Positions 2,577 to 31,350 of a stretch of DNA of 32,000 bases are shown here, in pieces. A program made the position numbers and the translations under genes. The stretch is from the NCBI GenBank assembly GCA_965220785.1, contig CBDCQW010000003.1, positions 2,826,583 through 2,858,582 on the forward strand. The letters are read 5' to 3'. Each line of letters begins with the position of its first letter. Positions within the stretch are counted from its first letter, which is position 1. The notes beneath the pieces were generated by a model. That model saw only the letters and a list, made by a program, of their open reading frames with translations. It did no database searches and was not told the DNA's origin. This DNA is from Dehalococcoidia bacterium. GTDB taxonomy: Bacteria; Chloroflexota; Dehalococcoidia; Lucifugimonadales; CAZENU01.

Positions 2577-3902
2577 CTAGACTAGGACCTGGACTGTCTC
2601 GTCTTTGACTACTATGCGCGCTACGTGGGAGGCGAGGAAGTCGCGCTGGGCTTCCATGTCGAGGTCTTCCCAGCGGGACAGGGTCTGGTCGACGTTGGCC
2701 TGGCTGTGGTCGCCCGACGCGGCTTTTCTAGCCGTGTCCAGGGCCGCCAGGTAGTCGGCGAGCAGGTACGTCTTTCGCTCGCCGCGTGCGATGCGCCTCA
2801 TCGCGTCGAGCAGCCTGCGCTCCGCGTGCTCCACGCGCTCGTCCCGAAGGGCCTGGGCGCGTTTGGCGTCGCCGTCGGGCGCGCCGGCTGCCCTCGCGCG
2901 GAGCGCCGGGCCGAGCTGACCGAATACCGTCCCTTCGAGCAGCGGCGCGCGCCAGGTGTGGTATCCGCACACGCTCTGGTTGTTCTTGGACTGGCACTGG
3001 TAGTAGCGGTAGACGCCGCGCTGTCTGCGGCCGTCCTGCCGTCTCCACGACTGTCGTCGGGTGACGCCCATCATCCTGTTGCCGCAGTAGCCGCACTCGA
3101 TCAGCCCCGATAGCAGGAACGGCTCCGACTTCGACACGCGTCCGAGCGGTCTGCGCGACTCTGTGACCTCGCGCGCGGCGCGAAACAGTTCGTGCGGAAC
3201 TATCGCGTCGTGCGTCCGGGGACGGCGCATGCCAAGCCGGGTGTAGGTCCCGGTGTATACCGGATTGCGTAGGACGTCCCGGATTCCGATGACGTTCCAG
3301 TTGGAGCCGCGTCGGGTCGGTATGCCGCGCTCGTTCAGGTGCTGCGCGATCAGACGAAAGCCCATCTCGTCCCGCGTGTACAGCCGGAAGATCAGCTCGA
3401 CTACCCTGGCCTCCTCGGACACTATTTCGAGCTTCCCCTCGGCGCCGATGCGGTAGCCGTAGGGCGGCTTGCCGAGGGCCTGGCCCTGGAGCGCCCGCTC
3501 CCGCATCGACTCCTTTATCCTCCGGCTGCGCGTCCGCGAGACACCCTTCACGCCCAGCGTCTGGAACGCGTTCTGCAGCGGGTCCGGGAACTCCTCGTCG
3601 AAGCACCGGACGACGGCGCCCGTCTGTTCGAGGTCGACGAAAGCCCTGGCCACCGACTCCAGATCGCCGCCCAGGTGCGTCGCGTCCGGGACCGCAACCA
3701 GGAACTCGCTGCCCGAGTCGCGCATGAACTCGATCATTTGGCGGTACTCGGGCGTCTCCCTGGGGGCCGCCTCTCCGCCGCCGGCGAAGCTGTTCACCGA
3801 CTGGTGGAAGTTGAGGTCGCAGAAGTCTTGGAACTGTCGCCGGAGCTCCGGCAGGGAGACCTCGTTTCCAGTGCCCAGGTAGAAGAAGCCGATGGCGCGC
3901 AT
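2577..3902 (-). CDS. Large serine recombinase family protein with degenerate (probably inactive) catalytic domain
   Basis: Collinear with resolvase N-domain, recombinase domain (PPYGYR, NPVYTG) and Zn-ribbon (CGYCG...YYQCQ...C). The catalytic Arg/Ser/DRLxR positions are substituted (see finding). Confidence 0.85.
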   Translation of the reverse strand: MRAIGFFYLGTGNEVSLPELRRQFQDFCDLNFHQSVNSFAGGGEAAPRETPEYRQMIEFMRDSGSEFLVAVPDATHLGGDLESVARAFVDLEQTGAVVRCFDEEFPDPLQNAFQTLGVKGVSRTRSRRIKESMRERALQGQALGKPPYGYRIGAEGKLEIVSEEARVVELIFRLYTRDEMGFRLIAQHLNERGIPTRRGSNWNVIGIRDVLRNPVYTGTYTRLGMRRPRTHDAIVPHELFRAAREVTESRRPLGRVSKSEPFLLSGLIECGYCGNRMMGVTRRQSWRRQDGRRQRGVYRYYQCQSKNNQSVCGYHTWRAPLLEGTVFGQLGPALRARAAGAPDGDAKRAQALRDERVEHAERRLLDAMRRIARGERKTYLLADYLAALDTARKAASGDHSQANVDQTLSRWEDLDMEAQRDFLASHVARIVVKDETVQVLV

Positions 3903-5010: not shown

Positions 5011-5162
5011 CGAACCCTCAGGAGTGAAGTGGTGCGGCCAAATCTTATCACAGACGGCCCTCTGGATACAAACGACGAGGGCGGCCTGGATTCGCCACCT
5101 GATTGGGCCGGCCGGCGTGACGGACTGCTTGCGGTATCATAGTGACGCACCTCGGCAGGGAT

Positions 5163-5337
5163 GGATTCCCGCGTTCACGGACCCTTGCATAACCGTCATT
5201 CCCGCGCAGAGCCTGCCCTCGCGTAGGCGGGGGCGGGAATCCAGGGGTGGGGTTCCCAGACAAGAAGTCTGCGCATCTCCACCACGTCTGTTTCCCGAAA
5301 GGAGCGTTACGCAAGGGTCTCCGGTCGCGGGAATGAC
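5163..5337. repeat. Cluster of REP-like palindromic units with ATTCCCGCG core
   Basis: GTCATTCCCGCG (5195-5206) and its exact reverse complement CGCGGGAATGAC (5326-5337). GGATTCCCG (5163-5171) and CGGGAATCC (5234-5242). No credible CDS here. Confidence 0.7.
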
Positions 5338-8222: not shown

Positions 8223-9305
8223 CTACAGGTCTTCGACGGCGGGCAGGACCTCGGTCGCCAGGAGCTCCATGGAGCGGTAGAACTGCTCGTTGCCGTTGCC
8301 CCAATCGTCGGTCTGGACGAGCAGGGTGCCGAAGCCGCCCGACCGGTCGTGCATCTCCCGGACCTTCTCCACGCAGTAGTCGGGGTCGCCGACGATCCAG
8401 TAGTTGTCGAGCATGTACTCCGGCGTCACGTCCTCGTCCGGGATGTCGGGATCGTACTTGAAGGTGCCGACGCCGCGCGGGCTGTTGCCGATCAGCTTCA
8501 TCCAGTAGTCGGTGAAGTCGCGGGCGAGCGCGCCCTCGAGCGCCTCCCTGCGGGCCTGCTCGGTCGTGTCGGCGACGTATACCTGCTTGGCGATGCGCCA
8601 CTCGGCCCTGGACGGCGTGCGGCCGCCGCGCTCGGCGCCGGCCGAGATCGACTCCCAGTTGGCCCCGAGCTGCGACGCGTGGACGAGGCTCGCGCTCAGC
8701 GGAATCCAGCCACGCTCGCCCGCCATCTCGAGCGTCGACGAACGGACGCTGGCCCCGGCGACCGCTATCGGCGGGTGCGGCTGCTGGTAGGGTCGGAGGT
8801 GGAAACTGACCTCCATCTCCGGGCGGTCCTGTGGCGTGCGCGTGCTGTAGAACTGGCCGTCGAAGTCGGTCGGGCCGTTCTCCCAGATGCTCAGGACCAG
8901 GTCGATGCCCTCCATCATGCGGTCGCGCTGGGCGCCGGGATCGGGGTCGATGCGCAGCATCTCGGCGTCGCTGGGCGTGCCGCCGGAGCCGATGCCGAAC
9001 ATGAACCGCCCCTTCGCCATGTGGTCGAGCATCGCGATGCGGTGCGCTACCTGCACAGGGTCGTGGAAGTGGAGCAGCACGACGCCGGTCCCGAAGGCGA
9101 TCTGCTCGGTCTCGCCCAGCGCGCGGGCGATGAACAGCTCCGGGGTCGGCATGTTCTCCCACGGGAGCATCATGTGCTCGCCGACCCAGATCTCGGAGAA
9201 GCCGAGCCGGTCGGCCCTTCGAACGAGCTCCAGGTCCTCGTCGTAGGTCTCGGCCGGGGGTCTCCCGGGCGGGTGCAGCGGCATCATGAACAGGCCGAAC
9301 TTCAT
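8223..9305 (-). CDS. LLM-class (luciferase-like) flavin-dependent oxidoreductase
   Basis: MKFGLFMMPLHPPG..., GFSEIWVGEH and GIGSGG are typical of the bacterial luciferase-like family. Paralogue of 12469..13551. Confidence 0.9.
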   Translation of the reverse strand: MKFGLFMMPLHPPGRPPAETYDEDLELVRRADRLGFSEIWVGEHMMLPWENMPTPELFIARALGETEQIAFGTGVVLLHFHDPVQVAHRIAMLDHMAKGRFMFGIGSGGTPSDAEMLRIDPDPGAQRDRMMEGIDLVLSIWENGPTDFDGQFYSTRTPQDRPEMEVSFHLRPYQQPHPPIAVAGASVRSSTLEMAGERGWIPLSASLVHASQLGANWESISAGAERGGRTPSRAEWRIAKQVYVADTTEQARREALEGALARDFTDYWMKLIGNSPRGVGTFKYDPDIPDEDVTPEYMLDNYWIVGDPDYCVEKVREMHDRSGGFGTLLVQTDDWGNGNEQFYRSMELLATEVLPAVEDL

Positions 9306-9431
9306 TGATATCTCCTCTTGGGCGTGTTCGCCCTATTCTCTCGGCATCGGCGCCGTCGGGGGACGGCGGGCTCGCCGACGGCCGTATTTGAACACGGGCC
9401 GGCCCTCCGTGTCCACGGTCGGCCTCCTCGG

Positions 9432-9720
9432 GTGACCGTTCAGACTTGCTGAGGCGAACGGCCACGAGAGTGCGTCGAGGCGGCCGGCCGTCTTTTTCGC
9501 TCAAAACTGTGCCATTCTGTTCCGTTCGTATCTGGCGGATGAAACACTTGGTCCGTAGATGAAACACCCGGTGTAACGCTCGCGTTATCTGAGTGGGAAC
9601 ACCGTGGCACGAAATCACAAGCCGTGTTCCGAGCCGGGCCTGCCGGGAAGGGGATGGGGAATGAACATGGATGCTGTTTCCACGCGGGCCTGGTAGCACA
9701 CATCTGCTGTATTCGCAACC
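9432..9720. repeat. Copy 1 of a ~290-nt non-coding element, starting with terminus GTGACCGTTCAGA
   Basis: Collinear with 30851-31140, with perfectly conserved blocks CCGGCCGTCTTTTTCGCT, AAAACTGTGCCATTCTGT, CCGTTCGTATCTGGCGG and TCCGAGCCGGGCCTGCCG. Similarity shows in all reading frames and substitutions are not 3-periodic, so it is non-coding. Confidence 0.8.
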
Positions 9721-9799
9721 CGGCTGGCGGCCGGGGGGCCCCCGAGCGGGTTGCGGCAGCCAGAACACCCGTGCTACCCTGTTCCCCGTGCCCCCGCTA

Positions 9800-9827
9800 T
9801 CCACTTCCCACTGCCCACTATCCACTA
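9800..9827 (+). repeat. Tandem heptamer array YCCACTN x4
   Basis: TCCACTT CCCACTG CCCACTA TCCACTA. It includes the 9-bp direct repeat CTATCCACT at 9797-9805 and 9818-9826. Confidence 0.7.
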
Positions 9828-9963
9828 TGGAACACCCCTGTTCCACTTTGTCCCGCCCTGTTCCACGCCAGATACGAAGCGTGGAACACCTACTGTTCCA
9901 TTTTCCGGCAAAGTGTTCCATCGCCCAGATAGGAATGGAACACTTTGGAACACAATGGAACAG
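9828..9963. repeat. Dense array of TGGAACA / TGTTCCA half-sites
   Basis: Perfect palindrome TGGAACA-CCCC-TGTTCCA (9828-9845). 10-bp inverted repeat TGTTCCACGC/GCGTGGAACA (9859-9888). TGTTCCAT/ATGGAACA (9914-9942). Further TGGAACA at 9946 and 9956. Confidence 0.8.
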
Positions 9964-10021
9964 CTCGTAGGAAATCGACCGCTCCAACTCCGCCCCACGG
10001 CGCCCCCACGTCTGAGGTCTC

Positions 10022-10046
10022 TGCATAACCGCCATTTCCCGCGCAG
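10022..10046 (+). repeat. REP-like unit related to 5186-5209
   Basis: TGCATAACCGCCATTTCCCGCGCAG compared with TGCATAACCGTCATTCCCGCGCAG at 5186-5209: one substitution and one indel. Confidence 0.65.
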
Positions 10047-10210
10047 GCAAACTTTCGCGTGTGCGATCGGGCACCTGTGTAACACTTCGGTAGGGGGATG
10101 CGGCGCCCGACCGGTATCGTCGTCCAACAGCCCGATGCTCAGAGGAACGTTACGGGATCGTCCGGTACCTGGAGCCCTTTTCCTCCAGACGGAGCAGCCC
10201 GCCGGTTGAC

Positions 10211-11254
10211 GTGCCCGACTCTGGTGCTAGAATTGCGCCCGTGGTGAAGACGGTGTCCTCACAGACTATTCGGATGGCGCAGTACGGGACCAAGCACGGC
10301 CACGCGGCCGGGGTTCTGAGCGTCATGCTGGCGAACCCGGACGTGGAGGTGGTCGGCCTCTACGAGCCCGACGCCTCCCGGCGCCGCGAGCTCGAGTCGT
10401 CCGGCGAGGCCCCCTGGTCGCAGGTGCGCTGGCTGGACGACAAGGCGGAGATGCTCGAGGACGACACGGTCGTCGCCATCTCGTCGGAGGGCTCCAACGT
10501 GGAGAGCCTCGACCACACAGAGGAGATCGTCGCCGCCGGAAAGCACGTCTTCCACGACAAGCCGGCCGGGGACGACTACCCGCGGTTCGAGGCGATAGTC
10601 GCGAGCGCGCGGGAGCAGGGCCTGCTCGTCCAGCTCGGCTACATGTTCCGCCACCACGACGGGTTCGTCCGGATCGCGGACTGGGCCAGATCGGGCTTCC
10701 TGGGCGACGTGTTCGCGGTGCGCTGTCACATGTCGACGAACATCCCGGCCGAGCGCCAGGACCCGGGCCGGGTGCCCGACGGCGGCATCTTCTACGACCT
10801 GGCGTCGCACATGCTCGACCAGGTCGTCTGGATACTCGGCCGGCCCACCAGGGTGACGAGCTTCCTGCGCGAGGACGTGATCGAGACCGGAGGCTTCGCA
10901 AACAACACTCTAGGCGTCTTCGAGTACGACGGCGCGATGGCGATCATAGATATCGCCGCCATGGAGCCGGCGCCGACGGCCAGGCGGTTCGAGGTGTACG
11001 GCTCGATGGGCTCAGCCATCATGGAGCCGATGGAGCCGGCCGACACGCTACGACTCGCCCTTATGGAGCCGCGCGGCGGCTACCCGGCCGGCGTGTCGAT
11101 CGTCGATCTCGAGGCCCGACCGAGGTATGTCGCCTCGCTGGAGGCATTCGTGCAGGACATCCGGGGCGAGAAGGAGCCCGACCGGTCGCTCGACCACGAG
11201 CTGCTGGTGCAGGAGACGCTGCTGCGGGCCACCGGACACATTCCCGGCGGATAG
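10211..11254 (+). CDS. Gfo/Idh/MocA family oxidoreductase
   Basis: N-terminal Rossmann region plus EKP-like HDKPAG and the C-terminal dimerisation domain pattern. Start uncertain (GTG 10211/10241/10244 or ATG 10274), with no clear SD. Confidence 0.8.
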   Translation: MPDSGARIAPVVKTVSSQTIRMAQYGTKHGHAAGVLSVMLANPDVEVVGLYEPDASRRRELESSGEAPWSQVRWLDDKAEMLEDDTVVAISSEGSNVESLDHTEEIVAAGKHVFHDKPAGDDYPRFEAIVASAREQGLLVQLGYMFRHHDGFVRIADWARSGFLGDVFAVRCHMSTNIPAERQDPGRVPDGGIFYDLASHMLDQVVWILGRPTRVTSFLREDVIETGGFANNTLGVFEYDGAMAIIDIAAMEPAPTARRFEVYGSMGSAIMEPMEPADTLRLALMEPRGGYPAGVSIVDLEARPRYVASLEAFVQDIRGEKEPDRSLDHELLVQETLLRATGHIPGG

Positions 11255-12468: not shown

Positions 12469-13551
12469 TCAATCGAGGTCGGACAGGCCGGGCATGACCT
12501 CTTCGGCCAACAGCGTCATGGAGCGCACCCATGCCTCCTTGGGCTGCCACTCGTGCCCCATGGTCAGCAGCACGCCGAAGCCACCGACCTCCTCATGCAG
12601 CGCGCGCAGCTTGTCGGCGACCTCGTCCGGGCTGCCTACGATCCAGATGTTGTCTATCAGGTAGTCGATGGTCACGTCGGAGTCCGGCATGTCCGGATCG
12701 GTCTTGAACAGGTCGATCATCTTCATGGTGGTCAGCACCTTCAGGAAGTAGCCGTTAAAGTCGCGGGCAAGGACGCCCTCACGCGCCTCCCGGCGCGCCT
12801 CTTCCGTCGTCTCGGCCACGAAGACGTTCCTTGCTATTCGCCAGAGCGAGCGGTCGGCGGTGCGGCCGGCGCTGGCGGCACCCTCGGTCACCATGTCCCA
12901 GTGGGTCTGTAGCGTGGCGGTGGGCACGAGGTTGATGCTCATCGGGATGTAGCCGCGCTCCCCGGCCAGGACGAGCGTGTCCGACCGCTTCGAGACGCCG
13001 GCGACGCCGATGGGCGGATGGGGCTTCTGGTAGGGCTTGTAGTGGAACGACAGCCCGATCTGCGGGTTGGGCTCGGGTACCGTGAAGCGCCAGAACTTGT
13101 GCTCGTAGACGCCGGGCTTGGGGTCGTCCCACAGCTTCAGCACGAGGTCGACGGCGTCGCGGGTCATCTGGCGCTGCTCGCCCGACTCCGGGTCGAAGCC
13201 GAAGACCTCGAAGTCGCCCGGAAAGCCGCCCGATCCGACGCCCCAGTAGAAGCGGCCGTGCGCGAGGTGGTCGAGCTGCGCGATGCGGTGGGCGATCATG
13301 AAAGGGTCGTGGTTGGGCATGCACGTGACGCCGGTGCCCAGGATGATATTCTCCGTGGCGCCCAAGGCCCTGGCGATGAACAGATCGGGGCAGGGCACGT
13401 TCTCCCACTCGGAGGTGAAGTGCTCGCCGATCCACGCCTCCTTGTAGCCGAGGCGGTCCAGGGTTACGAACTGCTCCAGGTCGTCGTCGAGGGCCTGCGT
13501 GATGTCGACGCCCGGCGGGTGCAGTGGCATGGTGAAGAAGCCGATTTCCAT
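12469..13551 (-). CDS. LLM-class (luciferase-like) flavin-dependent oxidoreductase
   Basis: MEIGFFTMPLHPPG..., GYKEAWIGEH, GVGSGG. Start at ATG 13551, preceded by GGAGG with a 6-nt spacer; the ORF extends to 13620. Paralogue of 8223..9305. Confidence 0.9.
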   Translation of the reverse strand: MEIGFFTMPLHPPGVDITQALDDDLEQFVTLDRLGYKEAWIGEHFTSEWENVPCPDLFIARALGATENIILGTGVTCMPNHDPFMIAHRIAQLDHLAHGRFYWGVGSGGFPGDFEVFGFDPESGEQRQMTRDAVDLVLKLWDDPKPGVYEHKFWRFTVPEPNPQIGLSFHYKPYQKPHPPIGVAGVSKRSDTLVLAGERGYIPMSINLVPTATLQTHWDMVTEGAASAGRTADRSLWRIARNVFVAETTEEARREAREGVLARDFNGYFLKVLTTMKMIDLFKTDPDMPDSDVTIDYLIDNIWIVGSPDEVADKLRALHEEVGGFGVLLTMGHEWQPKEAWVRSMTLLAEEVMPGLSDLD

Positions 13552-13690
13552 TGGTGACCTCCATCGGTGGGGTCTTGTACGCGCACCGGGCGAGCCCGAA
13601 CTGGGCGCGATTTCCGTCATCCAGTTGTCGCGCCACGACCTGCGACAGTCTACAACAGATTGGGAAACGGCTGTCGCCAGCGTACGGCGG

Positions 13691-19887: not shown

Positions 19888-20020
19888 CGCGGCACCGCCC
19901 ATGTCTGCTGAGTGCTGTATGTTCGTCGACGGGCCCGACCAGGCGTGGGCGCCGCTTGTGGTTGTTCGTCCGGGCGTGACGGACGGACGAACTCGGCCAA
20001 CCGCGAGTGTGTTCCGTAGC

Positions 20021-20155
20021 TGTTCAGACTTCGTGGGATCTGCTAGACCGGGCGGCGTCGCTTATGGGGCAATTTGGCTTTGAGCAAGGCTGTATCCCCG
20101 CCCTCCGCGGGCATTCGTCCCATCACCTCTGAACAGTTGCACGGAATCCCAGGTT
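20021..20155. mobile_element. MITE-like 135-bp unit bounded by inverted TTCCGT..CTGTTCAGA termini
   Basis: The left end TTCCGTAGCTGTTCAGA (20021-20037) is inverted with TCTGAACAGTTGCACGGAA (20137-20155). The right end shares an exact 18-mer with the left end of the 30851 element. No TSD detected. Confidence 0.45.
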
Positions 20156-20370
20156 CTCCACCTAAACCGTAGGTTCTTTGCCCGTCGACGCCGTGGGCGC
20201 GGCGCTAAGGCGAGATTGACGATGACAATAACTGTCACCATCCAGGTGCATTGTCACGACCCGGGAAGCAGTCCGTCACGCCGCTCGTCCAAATTAGGTG
20301 GGGGAATTTTTGGGAATCACGAGGGGTTGACGAAGCGCCGCAGAGATGCTAACTCGGTCTTCAGTTCTTC

Positions 20371-20422
20371 CCCGCCCGCTGGACCTTGGTCTCGGCCATA
20401 GTCCCTGGGCGGGTGTTTTTTT
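20371..20422 (+). terminator. Intrinsic terminator with no upstream plus-strand CDS
   Basis: CCCGCCC (20371-20377) pairs with GGGCGGG (20407-20413). There is an inner GGAC/GUCC helix, followed by TG and T7 (20416-20422). Confidence 0.6.
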
Positions 20423-29077: not shown

Positions 29078-30391
29078 CTAGTCGACCACGTCGCAGAGCA
29101 TCATGTCCTGGTACGTCTCGCGGCGGCGGATCAGCCGAGCCTCGCCGTTGGCGACCATGACGACGGCTGGTCTGGGGTTCAGGTTGTAGTTGCTCGCCAT
29201 CGACGGGGCGTAGGCGCCCGAGGCCGGTATCGCTACCAGGTCGCCTCGCTCCAGCACCGGCATCTCGATGTCGCGGATCAGCACGTCGCCCGACTCGCAG
29301 AACTTGCCGGCCAGCGTGACCGTCTCCGCGGCCGGGTCGGACATGCGGTTGGCGACGACCGCCTCGTACGCCGCGTCGTAGAGAGCCGGGCGGATGTTGT
29401 CGCCCATGCCGCCGTCGACCGACACGTACTTGCGGACGCCGGGGATATGCTTAACGCTGCCGACGGAGTAGAGCGCGACGCCGGCGCGTCCCACGATCGC
29501 GCGCCCCGGCTCTACCACCAGCTTCGGCGAGCCCAGGCCCAGGTCGCCGCACCGACGCTCGACCGCCGAGGCGATGACCTCGGCGTACGCGCCGATCGGC
29601 GGCGGCGGGCTGCTCCGGAGATAGCCGATGGCAAACCCGCCTCCCGGGCTGAACTCTCGCATCGTGAAGCCGTCGAGGTCGAGAGAGGCGACGAACGTCA
29701 GCACCGCGTCGATCCCGATCGCGTACGGCTCCAGCTCGAATATCGGAGAGCCCAGGTGCATGTGCACGCCGACCAGGTCCAGGCCGTCGGCCTCCAGGGC
29801 GAGGCGCATCGCCTCCCCGGCGTCCCCGGTCTCGATGGCGAAGCCGAACTTGCTGTCCAGCGTGCCGGTCGTCGTGTGGACGTGAGTGTGGGGATCGACG
29901 CCGGGAGAGAGCCGAAGCATGACGTCCTGCACTACGCCGCGGGAGCGGGCGATGCCGTCGAGCAGCTCCAGCTCGCCGAAGTTGTCGACGACTATCCGGC
30001 CGACGCCGTAGTCGAGGGCCATCTCCAGCTCTTCCGGCCCCTTGTTGTTGCCGTGGAAGTAGATGTCCGCGGGTGGTATCTCCGCCGCCTGGGCGACCGC
30101 CAGCTCGCCGCCCGACACCACGTCGAGCCCCAGCCCCTCCTCGCTCACCATTCGCGCCAGCGCCGGGTTGATGAACGCCTTGGAGGCGTAGAGGACCTGG
30201 CTGTCGGCGTACCGGCTGCCGAACTCTCCGACGAACTCCCGGCAGACCTGCCGCAGGGTCGCCTCGTCGAACACGTACAGAGGCGTCCCGAACTCGGCCG
30301 CGAGGTCGTCCGCGGCGCAGCCTCCCAGCGTCAGCCGGTCATCGGAGACGCCGGTCGTTATCGGAAACAGGGCGGAATTCGCGAATGGCAT
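29078..30391 (-). CDS. lysA: Diaminopimelate decarboxylase
   Basis: GTPLYVFDE, YASKA (PLP lysine), HGNNK, and C-terminal CESGD, in a full-length fold-III PLP decarboxylase pattern. Confidence 0.95.
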   Translation of the reverse strand: MPFANSALFPITTGVSDDRLTLGGCAADDLAAEFGTPLYVFDEATLRQVCREFVGEFGSRYADSQVLYASKAFINPALARMVSEEGLGLDVVSGGELAVAQAAEIPPADIYFHGNNKGPEELEMALDYGVGRIVVDNFGELELLDGIARSRGVVQDVMLRLSPGVDPHTHVHTTTGTLDSKFGFAIETGDAGEAMRLALEADGLDLVGVHMHLGSPIFELEPYAIGIDAVLTFVASLDLDGFTMREFSPGGGFAIGYLRSSPPPPIGAYAEVIASAVERRCGDLGLGSPKLVVEPGRAIVGRAGVALYSVGSVKHIPGVRKYVSVDGGMGDNIRPALYDAAYEAVVANRMSDPAAETVTLAGKFCESGDVLIRDIEMPVLERGDLVAIPASGAYAPSMASNYNLNPRPAVVMVANGEARLIRRRETYQDMMLCDVVD

Positions 30392-30476
30392 GAGCAGGCC
30401 TCGACGTGCTGCCGGACGGGCTTGCGCGGCGGGTAGGAGAACGGCCGACCACCGCCGTCACGGGCGAAGTCCGGGT

Positions 30477-30485
30477 ATTCTAGCA
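30477..30485 (-). promoter_or_regulatory. Extended -10 promoter candidate for lysA
   Basis: On the minus strand, TGCTAGAAT lies about 85 nt upstream of the lysA ATG. No good -35 element. Confidence 0.4.
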
Positions 30486-30556
30486 CGCGGCGAGCGCGCG
30501 GCCTTCGCGGCCGTGGAGCGGCCGACGCTCCTTCCGCGGCTCGGATGGGAGGGGAG

Positions 30557-30589
30557 TCACCGCACGTGGATGTCGAGCAGAAGGCGCAA
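30557..30589 (-). pseudogene. Remnant of a PIN/VapC toxin gene (10 codons then stop)
   Basis: Three nt after the antitoxin stop, TTG CGC CTT CTG CTC GAC ATC CAC GTG CGG TGA encodes (M)RLLLDIHVR*. This matches the canonical VapC N-terminus (LLLDTHV, with the first catalytic Asp). No continuation in any frame. Confidence 0.35.
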
Positions 30590-30592
30590 CGG

Positions 30593-30829
30593 CTACTTCC
30601 TTCCCTCCCACAAGGCCAGCTCTTCCTCCGGCAGCGGGTCGAAGAAGCTGTCGTCGAGCTCGATCTTTCCCTTCATGGAGCCGAATTGGCGCTTGCCCGG
30701 CTTTTGAAACTGCACTAGCCGCGCCACCGGCTTGCCGCCGCGGGCGATAACCACATCCTCGCCCGCCTCTACCCGCGCCAGCAGGCGCGACAGGTGCGTT
30801 TTCGCCTCGTGCACGTTCACTGTTACCAT
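30593..30829 (-). CDS. Phd/YefM-family type II antitoxin
   Basis: VTVNVHEAKTHLSRLLARVEAGEDVVIARGGKPVARL and C-terminal DDSFFDPLPEEELALWEG are typical of VapB/Phd antitoxins paired with PIN toxins. Confidence 0.85.
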   Translation of the reverse strand: MVTVNVHEAKTHLSRLLARVEAGEDVVIARGGKPVARLVQFQKPGKRQFGSMKGKIELDDSFFDPLPEEELALWEGRK

Positions 30830-30850
30830 CGCCGTCTCCTCAAGTGTGAC

Positions 30851-31140
30851 TTAACTGTTCAGAGGTGATGAGGCGAACGGCCAGGCGAGTGCGTCGAGAC
30901 CGCCGGCCGTCTTTTTCGCTGAAAACTGTGCCATTCTGTGCCGTTCGTATCTGGCGGGTGGCACACCTGGCCGGTAGATGACACACCCTGTTCCGGATTC
31001 GCCCTATCTGTGTCGGCACACCGCGACGCGGAATGACGCACCGTGATCCGAGCCGGGCCTGCCGAAAAAAGGGGATGGGGTATGAGCGTGCGAACCGTTT
31101 CCACGGAGGGAGAATAGCACGTATGTACTTGCCTTGCAAC
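30851..31140. repeat. Copy 2 of the ~290-nt non-coding element, starting with terminus TTAACTGTTCAGA
   Basis: Collinear with 9432-9720. It begins 22 nt upstream of the antitoxin ATG. Together with the inverted terminus at 31338-31350 it forms a ~500-bp composite. Confidence 0.8.
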
Positions 31141-31154
31141 TCACTGTGATCGGG

Positions 31155-31311
31155 GTGACTGTTCAGACTCGAGGAGATGGACTCAGCGGGGGACTTTCAT
31201 CGACGATGAAAATGAGGCTGCACCGGGAGGGCGGGTTTCAAACGGGTTTCAAACCCGCCCCTACGTCAGGTCGGGCCAAGGGTTATTCTCAGAGAAACTC
31301 TGAACAGTTAC
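31155..31311. mobile_element. 157-bp MITE-like insertion with 13-bp terminal inverted repeats and 8-bp target-site duplication
   Basis: GTGACTGTTCAGA (31155-31167) is inverted with TCTGAACAGTTAC (31299-31311), 12/13 matching. It is flanked by the perfect direct repeat TGATCGGG (31147-31154 and 31312-31319). Internal palindromes: TTTCATCGACGATGAAA, and GGGCGGGTTT...AAACCCGCCC. Confidence 0.65.
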
Positions 31312-31337
31312 TGATCGGGATGTCTCGGCCCTTAAGT

Positions 31338-31350
31338 CTGAACAGTTGGG
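31338..31350 (-). repeat. Solo inverted terminus CCAACTGTTCAGA (probable right end of the 30851 element)
   Basis: TCTGAACAGTTGG on the plus strand, followed by the hairpin GGGCCGTC-N8-GACGGCCC (31348-31371). Confidence 0.5.

Follow-up and report, generated by a model that had tools for sequence, protein, structure and literature searches.

One of the questions raised by the 32,000-nucleotide (nt) stretch of Dehalococcoidia DNA analyzed here (the window; contig CBDCQW010000003.1, assembly GCA_965220785.1) concerns two look-alike regions, W1 and W2, that lie in front of unrelated genes and carry a heptamer repeated three times, the third base of which differs between the two regions in all three places. 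What is the element that these regions represent, and why should one base of its repeated heptamers change in concert? The nearest named relatives of the window are Dehalococcoidia, Chloroflexi, and SAR202 metagenome-assembled genomes (MAGs). The interpretation that we tentatively favor, at somewhat less than an even chance, is that W1 and W2 belong to a family of once-mobile cassettes of SAR202-like Dehalococcoidia, each of which would give the adjacent gene a promoter and a structured leader of ~250 nt.

According to this model the element would open, on the gene-facing strand (the minus strand for W1 and W2), with a sigma-70-type promoter composed of TTGCGA, a spacer of 17-18 nt, and TGCTATTCT. 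The ~250-nt leader is predicted to fold into a small hairpin, P3, and two related hairpins with the conserved loops CAGAUA..CGAAC, and a module derived from the end of a miniature inverted-repeat transposable element (MITE) would close the element just before the ribosome-binding site of the gene. The heptamers (GRNACAC on the plus strand; UGUNYC in RNA) would constitute the 5' arms of the hairpins, and inverted boxes (TGTNCC; GGNACA in RNA) the 3' arms. The third base would then change in concert because the arms must stay complementary, a case of compensatory evolution and not of a code read by proteins. The model implies that the promoter would fire, that the structure of the RNA and not the DNA would be under selection, and that the invariant loops may be read by a trans-acting factor tuning whichever gene lies downstream.

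A dispersed family of noncoding elements

The initial annotation of the window, made from its letters, had described the two regions as collinear and about three-quarters identical. Alignment of 9435-9719 with 30854-31140 by blastn gave 77.2% identity over 289 nt with an E value of 2.5e-59, and in the MAFFT alignment the copies are collinear with long identical blocks, among them a shared block of 36 nt with a single difference, AAAACTGTGCCATTCTGT[T/G]CCGTTCGTATCTGGCGG. A family profile search placed the limits of the full elements, composed of a left module and a core, at 9431..9727 for W1 (nhmmer 309 bits, E 5.7e-94) and 30851..31146 for W2 (nhmmer 305 bits), both on the minus strand. Each is situated upstream of a minus-strand gene start, as the annotation had it: the putative transcript of W1 runs on the minus strand toward a gene encoding a luciferase-like monooxygenase (LLM), whose ATG at 9305 is 126 nt from the element, and W2 lies 22 nt from the ATG at 30829 of a gene encoding a Phd/YefM antitoxin. 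W1 and W2 differ at 69 positions, with every type of substitution represented (G>A 12, A>G 10, C>G 9, A>C 7, etc.), and the G+C content of the elements is 56-59% compared with 67% for the window.

A third copy, W3, had been overlooked. It is a diverged, core-only copy at 9744-9979 (nhmmer E 8.5e-16, profile positions 59-297) that is inverted relative to W1, its proposed transcript being on the plus strand, and the two copies are detected as a blastn self-match (9508-9778 with 9952-9692). W3 is arranged head to head with W1, the promoter ends being 18 nt apart, and its transcript would be directed toward a GFO/IDH/MocA oxidoreductase gene. It is because W3 lies there that TGGAACA/TGTTCCA boxes are so dense at 9760-9965; W3 has ~11 of them. 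Altogether the family comprises 13 copies or part-copies at ~10 independent loci: three in the window, six in the MAG CBDHDR010000002.1, and four in other ENA assemblies. The two copies known to the initial annotation are thereby joined by W3 and by ten others in related Dehalococcoidia assemblies. An exact-pattern scan of the genome collection yielded six matches (L001-L006), all in one 3.7-Mb contig of a Dehalococcoidia MAG and none of them the window itself, whose genome that collection does not include; an exact search for the LLM protein of the window gave no record. The contexts of the relatives were fetched around graded orthologs of the flanking LLM and LysA proteins. Orthologous copies of W1 are found upstream of LLM orthologs in L011 and L016, where the LLM is 94-95% identical to that of the window, and W3-like core-only copies occur at another locus in L019 and L020; L018 possesses a copy of the left module only (9807-9866).

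Identity among paralogous copies is 71-79%, and among orthologs it is 87% for W1 and L016 and 78% for W1 and L011; the copies with C at the variable heptamer base form one similarity group. Some blocks are invariant or near-invariant, e.g. CCGCCAGATACGAACGG, even in copies that were found without that pattern, and the MITE-type end of the element is intact in only five of nine copies. Because the core blocks have remained invariant at 71-79% identity while the MITE-type end decays, selection appears to have acted on the core and not on signals for mobility.

The annotation had also taken the element to be noncoding and unrelated to known noncoding RNAs, which further searches bear out. No Rfam family matched the window at the gathering threshold, and relaxing the cutoff to E<=10 added nothing but chance matches to miRNA and CRISPR-DR families far below threshold, none of them in W1 or W2; tRNA and tmRNA scans found nothing. 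A coding function was rejected, the minus-strand open reading frames (ORFs) at 9440-9718 and 30840-31139 having no Pfam match and the copies differing by 1-, 2-, and 4-nt indels. A plus-strand ORF of 10-11 codons (9661-9696, MNMDAVSTRAW; 31081-31116, MSVRTVSTEGE) follows AAGGGGATGGGG, recurs in most copies as MxTETVSTRxE, and overlaps the -10 region of the opposite strand; it is frameshifted in L005, its conservation is at the nucleotide and not the codon level, and it is probably not translated. There was no blastn match in plasmid and phage databases, the scan of viral contigs gave three chance matches only, and a scan of the metagenome collection with TCTGTNCCGTTCGTATCTGGC gave four, all chance matches inside a coding gene. 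Literature searches turned up no such repeats in SAR202 or Dehalococcoidia. As far as these searches tell, the repeat family appears to be undescribed.

Promoter-like end and covarying hairpins

Every copy that has its right end begins, on the gene-facing strand, with GTTGCGA, 17-18 nt, and TGCTATTCT, that is, with a -35-like hexamer and an extended -10, and conservation of the element begins 2-3 nt upstream of the -35. The hexamers, their spacing (16-18 nt), and the extended -10 (TGn) make the right end a putative sigma-70-type promoter; promoters of the relatives are canonical TTGACG-17-TATAAT. The putative promoter of W2 (31111..31139, minus strand) consists of TTGCAA, 17 nt, and TGCTATTCT as the extended -10, and that of W3 (9751..9780, plus strand) of TTGCGG, 18 nt, and TGCTACCCT. 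In W1 (9690..9718, minus strand) the -35 TTGCGA (9713-9718) and a 17-nt spacer ending in TGC precede a -10, TACCAG (9690-9695), that lacks the usual final T and places the site outside the pattern TTGC-N16/17-TGNTANNNT; the W1 orthologs in L011 and L016 have TGCTATTTT, with a -10 of TATTTT. This pattern matches the window twice, at W2 and W3 only, where 0.06 matches are expected, and in the ~290 kb of fetched loci eight of its ten matches fall at element ends, all in the same orientation. L004 deviates from it in having TAC instead of TGC. A mini-hairpin at the right end was rejected as evidence for RNA, since it falls within the promoter spacer and the TGn constraint accounts for its asymmetry.

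At eight of the nine clear independent loci the gene beyond the far end of the element runs in the direction of the promoter; the orientation at L006 is ambiguous and L019c/L020c is the exception. The downstream genes are unrelated, encoding LLM, Phd, GFO/IDH/MocA, DapF, X-Pro peptidase (PepX), a further LLM, a solute symporter (SSF), and DUF418. Two observations concern the spaces between elements and genes in the window. A short upstream ORF, VDTEGRPVFKYGRRRARRPPTAPMPRE, lies between W1 and the LLM gene (9333-9416, minus strand) and has a GTG start after GAGGAGG. Its first ~11 codons are kept in L011 and L016 and also in L012, which is without the element, and in L011 and L016 its stop codon overlaps the LLM start (ATGA), an arrangement that suggests either translational coupling or a leader peptide. 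On the other side, a strong promoter-like sequence, TTGACG-16-(TG)TAGAAT (10206-10233, plus strand), lies across position 10211, the mechanical start of the GFO/IDH/MocA ORF. Translation probably begins instead at the ATG near 10275, and this gene therefore has a putative promoter of its own downstream of W3.

The heptamers had been placed correctly by the initial annotation, with GAAACAC at 9541 and 9561 and GGAACAC at 9596 in W1, and GGCACAC at 30960 and 31015 and GACACAC at 30980 in W2, at positions that are homologous in the MAFFT alignment. On the plus strand each copy has three forward boxes, C, D, and E (GRNACAC), three inverted boxes, A, B, and F (TGTNCC), and a degenerate box, B2. Read on the minus strand, hairpin HP1 (9517..9547 in W1, 30936..30966 in W2) is formed by box B (CTGTTCC at 9517-9523 in W1; CTGTGCC in W2) and box C (GAAACAC at 9541-9547 in W1; GGCACAC in W2); the 17 nt between the two boxes, GTTCGTATCTGGCGG(G/A)T, do not vary within the family. 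The invariant loop is the same in W1 and W2 (plus strand GTTCGTATCTGGCGGA), and the loop sequence of HP1 and HP2 is CAGAUACGAAC. Of the HP1 cells in the alignment, 98.5% are paired, and the variable pair is U-A in five copies, G-C in four, and C-G in one, with one mismatch. An outer pairing, D-A, encloses HP1 (9507..9567 in W1, minus strand; box A CTGTGCC at 9507-9513, box D GAAACAC at 9561-9567). It is mismatched at the variable base in W1, and family-wide 90.9% of its cells are paired, with three pair types.

The HP2 region (9570..9602 in W1, minus strand) extends from GGTGT through a mini-hairpin (AACG-CTCG-CGTT) and TATCTGA to box E (GGAACAC, 9596-9602). In HP2, box E pairs with B2 around TATCTGA..CGAAC, perfectly over 10 bp in W3 and over 7 bp in L011, and the mini-hairpin covaries (AACG/CGTT, AGCG/CGCT, GGG/CCC). 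The register of HP2 varies between subfamilies; a fixed register and an F-E pairing were both rejected as not consistently supported. P3 and box F occupy 9606..9630 on the minus strand of W1 (P3 9606-9623; box F GTGTTCC 9624-9630), the equivalents in W2 being at 31025-31049. A co-varying mini-palindrome that the annotation had described is present in the two copies as CGTGgCACG and CGCGaCGCG, but is not palindromic elsewhere in the family (CGTGGCGCG, CGTGGGGCG, CGTAGTGCG, etc.); the stretch in question is one arm of P3 (GGCGCG-N6-CGCGCC).

The concerted change itself recurs family-wide. In the order of boxes B, C, D, and E, the variable base is A A A A in W1 and C C C C in W2, L003, L004, and L005; it is G G G G in L002, which has two further G boxes, and W3 and the W3-like copies have A in all of their 9-11 boxes. 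All-A, all-C, and all-G copies therefore exist, but the rule is not strict, being broken in the mixed copies L001 (C G C C), L016 (A A A G), and L011 and L006 (A A G G). According to our model B matches C, and A matches D, because of pairing. The annotation had proposed a code read either by a protein or by RNA pairing; of the two, RNA pairing is the better supported, by the complementary TGTNCC boxes and by three kinds of Watson-Crick pair. The named structure is 87.5% paired compared with 83.7 ± 1.1 in shuffles (0/500) and 35-48% when slid, and its covariation score is 0.218 compared with 0.168 in shuffles (1/500). The consensus fold gives a column-shuffle z of -3.4 for the core, and for the whole transcribed region -2.0 on the promoter strand against -0.05 on the other strand.

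Departures from Watson-Crick pairing also indicate a strand. In HP1, D-A, and P3 taken together, the cells that are not Watson-Crick pairs comprise 18 G-U pairs and 17 mismatches on the promoter-driven strand, compared with two G-U pairs and 33 mismatches on the other strand. P3 has 12 cells that are G-U on the minus-strand reading and A-C mismatches on the other, and forward boxes often have A at position 2 where inverted boxes almost never have the matching T. On the promoter strand C>U changes are found in 13 of 19 C-majority helix columns compared with 18 of 64 elsewhere, and G>A changes are not enriched in helix columns (8/21 vs 18/51), so that a general skew of mutation does not account for the pattern. 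The stem of the left module is the exception to this bias. The wobble bias agrees with the orientation of both promoter and gene.

It is conceivable, although we regard it as unlikely, that the boxes are instead an array of protein-binding sites in double-stranded DNA. The array would consist of TGRNACA boxes in both orientations, with TATCTG and CGAAC as sub-sites ~10 nt away, and would be bound by a transposase or recombinase or by a transcription factor, the variable base being either not contacted or tracking paralogous proteins. A transposase array of this kind would be akin to the subterminal repeats at the ends of Mu, Tn7, and Tn402, and GTTTCAT-N10-CGAAC bears what we take to be a resemblance to the MuA-site consensus, YGTTTCAYT-N-CGAAA, which we keep only as a lead. 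Each copy has 6-11 boxes in both orientations at a fixed spacing, W3 has perfect inverted repeats of 10 and 13 bp, a palindrome typical of operators (AGCACA-N2-TGTGCT) is found within the promoter spacer, and presence and absence between relatives indicate that the element is or was mobile, all of which would suit such an array. However, a protein blind to the variable base provides no reason for the same base to occupy 4-11 boxes, or for the complementary base to occupy the inverted ones, and neither the asymmetry between box orientations nor a wobble bias on one strand is expected for recognition of a duplex. Moreover, none of the copies in the loci covered has a linked gene for a transposase, recombinase, or regulator, and the core has neither inverted ends nor a target duplication.

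Modular construction and presence or absence in close relatives

The element is polymorphic between close relatives at both minus-strand loci of the window. At the LLM locus it is present in the window, L011, and L016 and absent from L012-L015 and L017, in which the LLM is 79-91% identical; in L012 the ~130 nt nearest the LLM gene match the window, and the similarity stops precisely at the left edge of the element. At the Phd locus it is present in the window and absent from L018-L020, which have a divergent intergenic region of 149 nt whose promoter is the canonical TTGACG-17-TA(C/T)AAT. From this region the window has lost ~47 nt, the native promoter included, and has in their place ~480 nt made up of W2, a nested MITE, and a lone inverted repeat. 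The native 25-nt untranslated region and Shine-Dalgarno sequence of Phd have been retained, and W2 is the sole promoter-like site left for the gene. In L018-L020 a PIN-domain toxin gene and a Usp-like gene are found between Phd and lysA; the window has a 200-nt gap there, and Phd is an orphan (30391-30829). With the toxin and Usp-like genes lost and the promoter exchanged, the Phd locus has therefore seen both deletion and promoter replacement.

The full element is built from a left module of ~60 nt and a core of ~235 nt. In W1 the left module (9432..9497) begins with a MITE-type end, GTGACCGTTCAGAC (9432-9445), followed by a hairpin, AACGGCC..GGCCGT, and CTTTTT (9457-9497); in W2 (30851..30916) it begins with TTAACTGTTCAGAG, again followed by the hairpin and T-run (30876-30916), so that a GC-rich hairpin and T-run on the plus strand, which the annotation had reported for both copies, are indeed there. 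The first ~33 nt of the module are homologous to the ends of a MITE family with TGTTCAGA inverted repeats, whose ends are of the form GT(A/G)ACTGTTCAGA. The idea that the copies might be fragments of a known insertion sequence (IS) end consequently applies to the left module only and not to the core. The module is missing from W3, L002, L019c, and L020c. In all nine full copies its stem, AACGGCC..GGCCGU, is followed by U5-8 and resembles an intrinsic terminator on the plus strand; a simple terminator scanner misses it because the loop is ~22 nt. No plus-strand transcription unit ending at this hairpin was found, and the hairpin may either be left over from the MITE-derived module or serve as an insulator. 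The element as a whole is composite and has either moved or been moved.

MITEs are frequent neighbors of the promoter end. A nested MITE (31155-31311) begins 14 nt beyond that of W2, with inverted repeats of 14 bp (GTGACTGTTCAGAC and GTAACTGTTCAGAG) and an 8-bp target duplication, TGATCGGG (31147-31154 and 31312-31319), and a lone inverted TGTTCAGA repeat, AAGTCTGAACAGTTGG, follows at 31334..31349. With the nested MITE removed, W2 would be a ~333-nt unit bounded by inverted repeats, the partner repeat being 37 nt beyond the core. MITEs of the same kind are also located 14-20 nt beyond the promoter end of L003, L016, L011, L019c, and L020c. A left terminal repeat of the TGTTCAGA type is found in five of the nine full copies and an inverted partner in W2 only; the repeats at other copies are in the same orientation and belong to neighboring MITEs. 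There is no target duplication at W2 (AGTGTGAC vs GGCCGTCT), where the site also has a 47-nt deletion, and none at the W1/L011/L016 locus. The annotation had considered that copies might be linked to a transposase or recombinase gene; none is, in the ~290 kb of loci examined. A parent IS for the MITE ends was not found in the fetched loci, and the ends that go with the DDE transposases of L013 and L017 are unrelated to them; the GTAA/GTGA ends and 8-bp duplication are reminiscent of IS66-type ends.

It is improbable, in our view, that the family represents only decaying cargo of mobile elements without a function for the host. The core would then be the interior of a TGTTCAGA-family MITE, the A, C, and G heptamers would identify old subfamilies, and their concert would reflect ancestry and chance. 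Such an origin would fit with the homology of the left end to MITE ends, with the inverted TGTTCAGA repeats that bound W2 once its nested MITE is subtracted, with the clustering of MITEs and of repeats resembling repetitive extragenic palindromic (REP) sequences around every copy, with close relatives that are without the element at both window loci, with part-copies of either module, and with the single similarity group formed by the C-type copies. Nevertheless, an interior that is invariant at 71-79% identity with an end that decays is the opposite of what selection for mobility only would produce. All-A, all-C, and all-G copies would require at least four parallel changes to the same base on single branches while the flanks are still orthologous, and the 8/9 orientation bias toward downstream genes would be left unexplained.

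Very unlikely, we think, is a hairpin element active as single-stranded DNA, derived from REP/REPIN or IS200/IS605 sequences and read by an HUH-type transposase or RAYT. It would also predict covariation and strand-specific wobbles, in that case G-T, and it is consistent with the tolerance of wobbles on one strand, with covarying stems around conserved loops, with a core without inverted ends or target duplication, and with the abundance of REP-like hairpin repeats beside the copies. No conserved target tetranucleotide flanks the copies, however, and none of the fetched loci contains a Y1 or RAYT gene; the element has ~10 times the length of a REP, both orientations occur within 32 kb (W1 and W2 vs W3), and the conserved promoter motif and gene-facing orientation would have no explanation. 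We see little prospect for a stand-alone small RNA gene of ~190 nt that ends at D-A/HP1 plus GUUUU, acts in trans, and is near gene starts incidentally: the promoter motif, a short run of U residues (UUUU, UUUC, or AUUU) that immediately follows box A in full copies, the L019c/L020c copy without a codirectional downstream gene, and the unrelatedness of the downstream genes all accord with it, but the U-run amounts to no more than 3-4 nt, comes after a large and irregular structure, and has no counterpart in W3, L002, or the W3-like copies, the start codons at W2 and L006 are only ~20 nt beyond the element with no other promoter, and at least ten diverged paralogous small RNA genes with different "seed" boxes would be unusual.

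The remainder of the window contains other repeats and duplications. A second unit bounded by TGTTCAGA repeats, ~120 nt in length, is found at 20018-20140. A family of REP-like repeats (..CCTGATTGGGCCGG..GTGACGGACTGCTT..GGGATGGATTCCCGCGTTCGCGGGAATG..) with hairpin-forming ends, GGGAATCC/GGATTCCC, is represented at 5095-5230, at 20244-20301 in inverted orientation, and as a fragment at 10026-10050; it also adjoins the element in L001, L003, L005, and L006 and often abuts the promoter end. At 20327-20422 (plus strand) a promoter-like sequence, TTGACG-17-TGCTAACTC, is followed ~20 nt on by a strong hairpin, CCCGCCCGCTGG..CCCTGGGCGGG, and T7, and is a candidate small RNA of ~65 nt without an Rfam match. 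The LLM paralogs at 8223-9305 and 12469-13620 match at the DNA level in several collinear stretches whose offset is constant (4243-4246 nt), and are an old tandem-type duplication. A 441-amino-acid protein (2577-3902, minus strand) resembles large serine recombinases in its "Recombinase" and zinc-ribbon domains, with no N-terminal resolvase domain detected. In L011, L012, and L016 its gene likewise lies between a CT398-like gene and ruvB, and it seems to be fixed in the chromosome and not carried by a mobile element.

Standing of the cassette model and comparison with known systems

Several findings weigh against the promoter and leader cassette. The strand figures are modest and non-independent, with p of ~0.03-0.06 by rough counts, and the covariation statistics are weak, there being only 11-13 related sequences from which the structure itself was derived. 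Single-sequence folding gives a z of ~0 on both strands, and a compact, highly stable RNA is rejected on that ground. In L006, L011, L016, and L001 boxes D and E are not in full agreement with B and C, and boxes A, B2, and F are mostly without covariation; simple pairing therefore leaves unexplained why several helices have the same variable base, which alternative pairings (C-A, D-B, E-B, and B2-D are possible) or a common reader would explain. A simple promoter scanner calls none of the promoter-like sites, which have 8/12 matches under a 9/12 rule, and the -10 of W1 is TACCAG. The hairpin and T-run of the left module would be a terminator only for the opposite strand, and its wobbles slightly favor that strand (3 vs 2). 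At one locus (L019c/L020c) the element faces a convergent gene, no function is common to the downstream genes, and those for GFO and LLM have their own promoter or a conserved upstream region. At the Phd locus, where the antitoxin gene is an orphan without its PIN toxin, donation of a promoter may be irrelevant.

An extension of the cassette model, which we consider quite doubtful, is that the element is a mobile riboregulator. One trans-acting factor would read the CAGAUA..CGAAC loops and bring unrelated genes into a common regulon, the boxes would act as an on/off switch through alternative pairing, and the variable base would prevent cross-pairing between sister copies.

Some other identities were considered and rejected. 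A template or variable repeat of a diversity-generating retroelement does not fit with substitutions of all types that are not adenine-specific, and no reverse transcriptase domain is found among the window ORFs scanned. An origin reading, or a parS reading, was prompted by TATCCAC and TGTTCCAC/GTGGAACA motifs near 9790-9960. At least six copies in one 3.7-Mb contig, a bacterial genome, and metabolic neighbors speak against oriC, DnaA boxes, plasmid iterons, and the archaeal ORB, the window being bacterial chromosome that encodes RuvB, GreA, PlsY, HolB, LysA, and RadC; the half-sites TGTTCCAC and GTGGAACA resemble parS halves but are split by 10-17 nt. W3 has DnaA-box-like strings at 9790-9830 (CTATCCAC twice, plus TTCCCAC and TGCCCAC), which align with the G-rich GGGGATGGGG segment of other copies and are therefore a diverged part of the repeat and not an origin. 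Apparent resemblances to sigma-54 promoters (TGGCAC-N5-TTGC), the LexA/Cheo box, CIRCE, ANTAR, and PyrR are misfits in spacing or sequence.

The SAR202-type Dehalococcoidia are abundant and uncultured, and the control of their many paralogous oxidative enzymes is almost unstudied. The metabolism encoded in the window is paralog-rich, with two LLMs, three GFO/IDH/MocA oxidoreductases, a sulfatase, and an enolase-superfamily enzyme, which is typical of SAR202-like Chloroflexi. If the cassette model is correct, the family would provide a concrete case of regulation rewired by a mobile noncoding cassette, with replacement of a native promoter at Phd, and would supply a defined promoter motif for these organisms and a candidate RNA element with invariant loops as leads. 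Even as nothing more than a decaying MITE, the element would be of use in marking recent rearrangement between close populations.

The closest systems in kind appear to be the promoter-bearing dispersed repeats, Correia, ERIC, and BOX, and the MITEs. Repeats of the Correia (Neisseria), ERIC, BOX, and RUP type are small, intergenic, often modular, and polymorphic between strains; they are situated in front of genes unrelated to one another and may bring with them outward promoters as well as hairpins that act in the transcript. Our element is likewise dispersed, present or absent between relatives, and endowed with a promoter-like end and hairpins on the transcript strand. However, it is found in another phylum, has no sequence similarity to these repeats, and its core is without terminal inverted repeats or target duplication; its copies are much more diverged (71-79%), its loops are invariant, the several 7-nt boxes of each copy are complementary to one another, and their variable base differs from copy to copy. 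With the TGTTCAGA MITEs it has in common insertion polymorphism and the homology of its first ~33 nt to their ends. Unlike them it has one MITE-like end only, which is decaying, a conserved interior, no target duplication, and copies consisting of the core or the end alone.

In the manner of cis-regulatory leader RNAs such as attenuators and protein-binding leaders, the element is found between a promoter-like site and a start codon and has tandem hairpins with conserved loops and covarying stems, segments with alternative pairings, and a short U-run after the last helix. Known leaders keep to one gene family or pathway, whereas the element precedes unrelated genes and moves between loci, is without an Rfam match, and has no clear terminator/antiterminator pair that we could identify. 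The REPIN and REP (RAYT) sequences resemble it in their compensatory hairpin arms and strand-specific wobbles, and REP-like repeats are found beside its copies; the element differs from them in being ~10 times longer, in possessing an internal promoter motif and multiple hairpins, and in being accompanied by neither a RAYT gene in the fetched loci nor a conserved flanking tetranucleotide.

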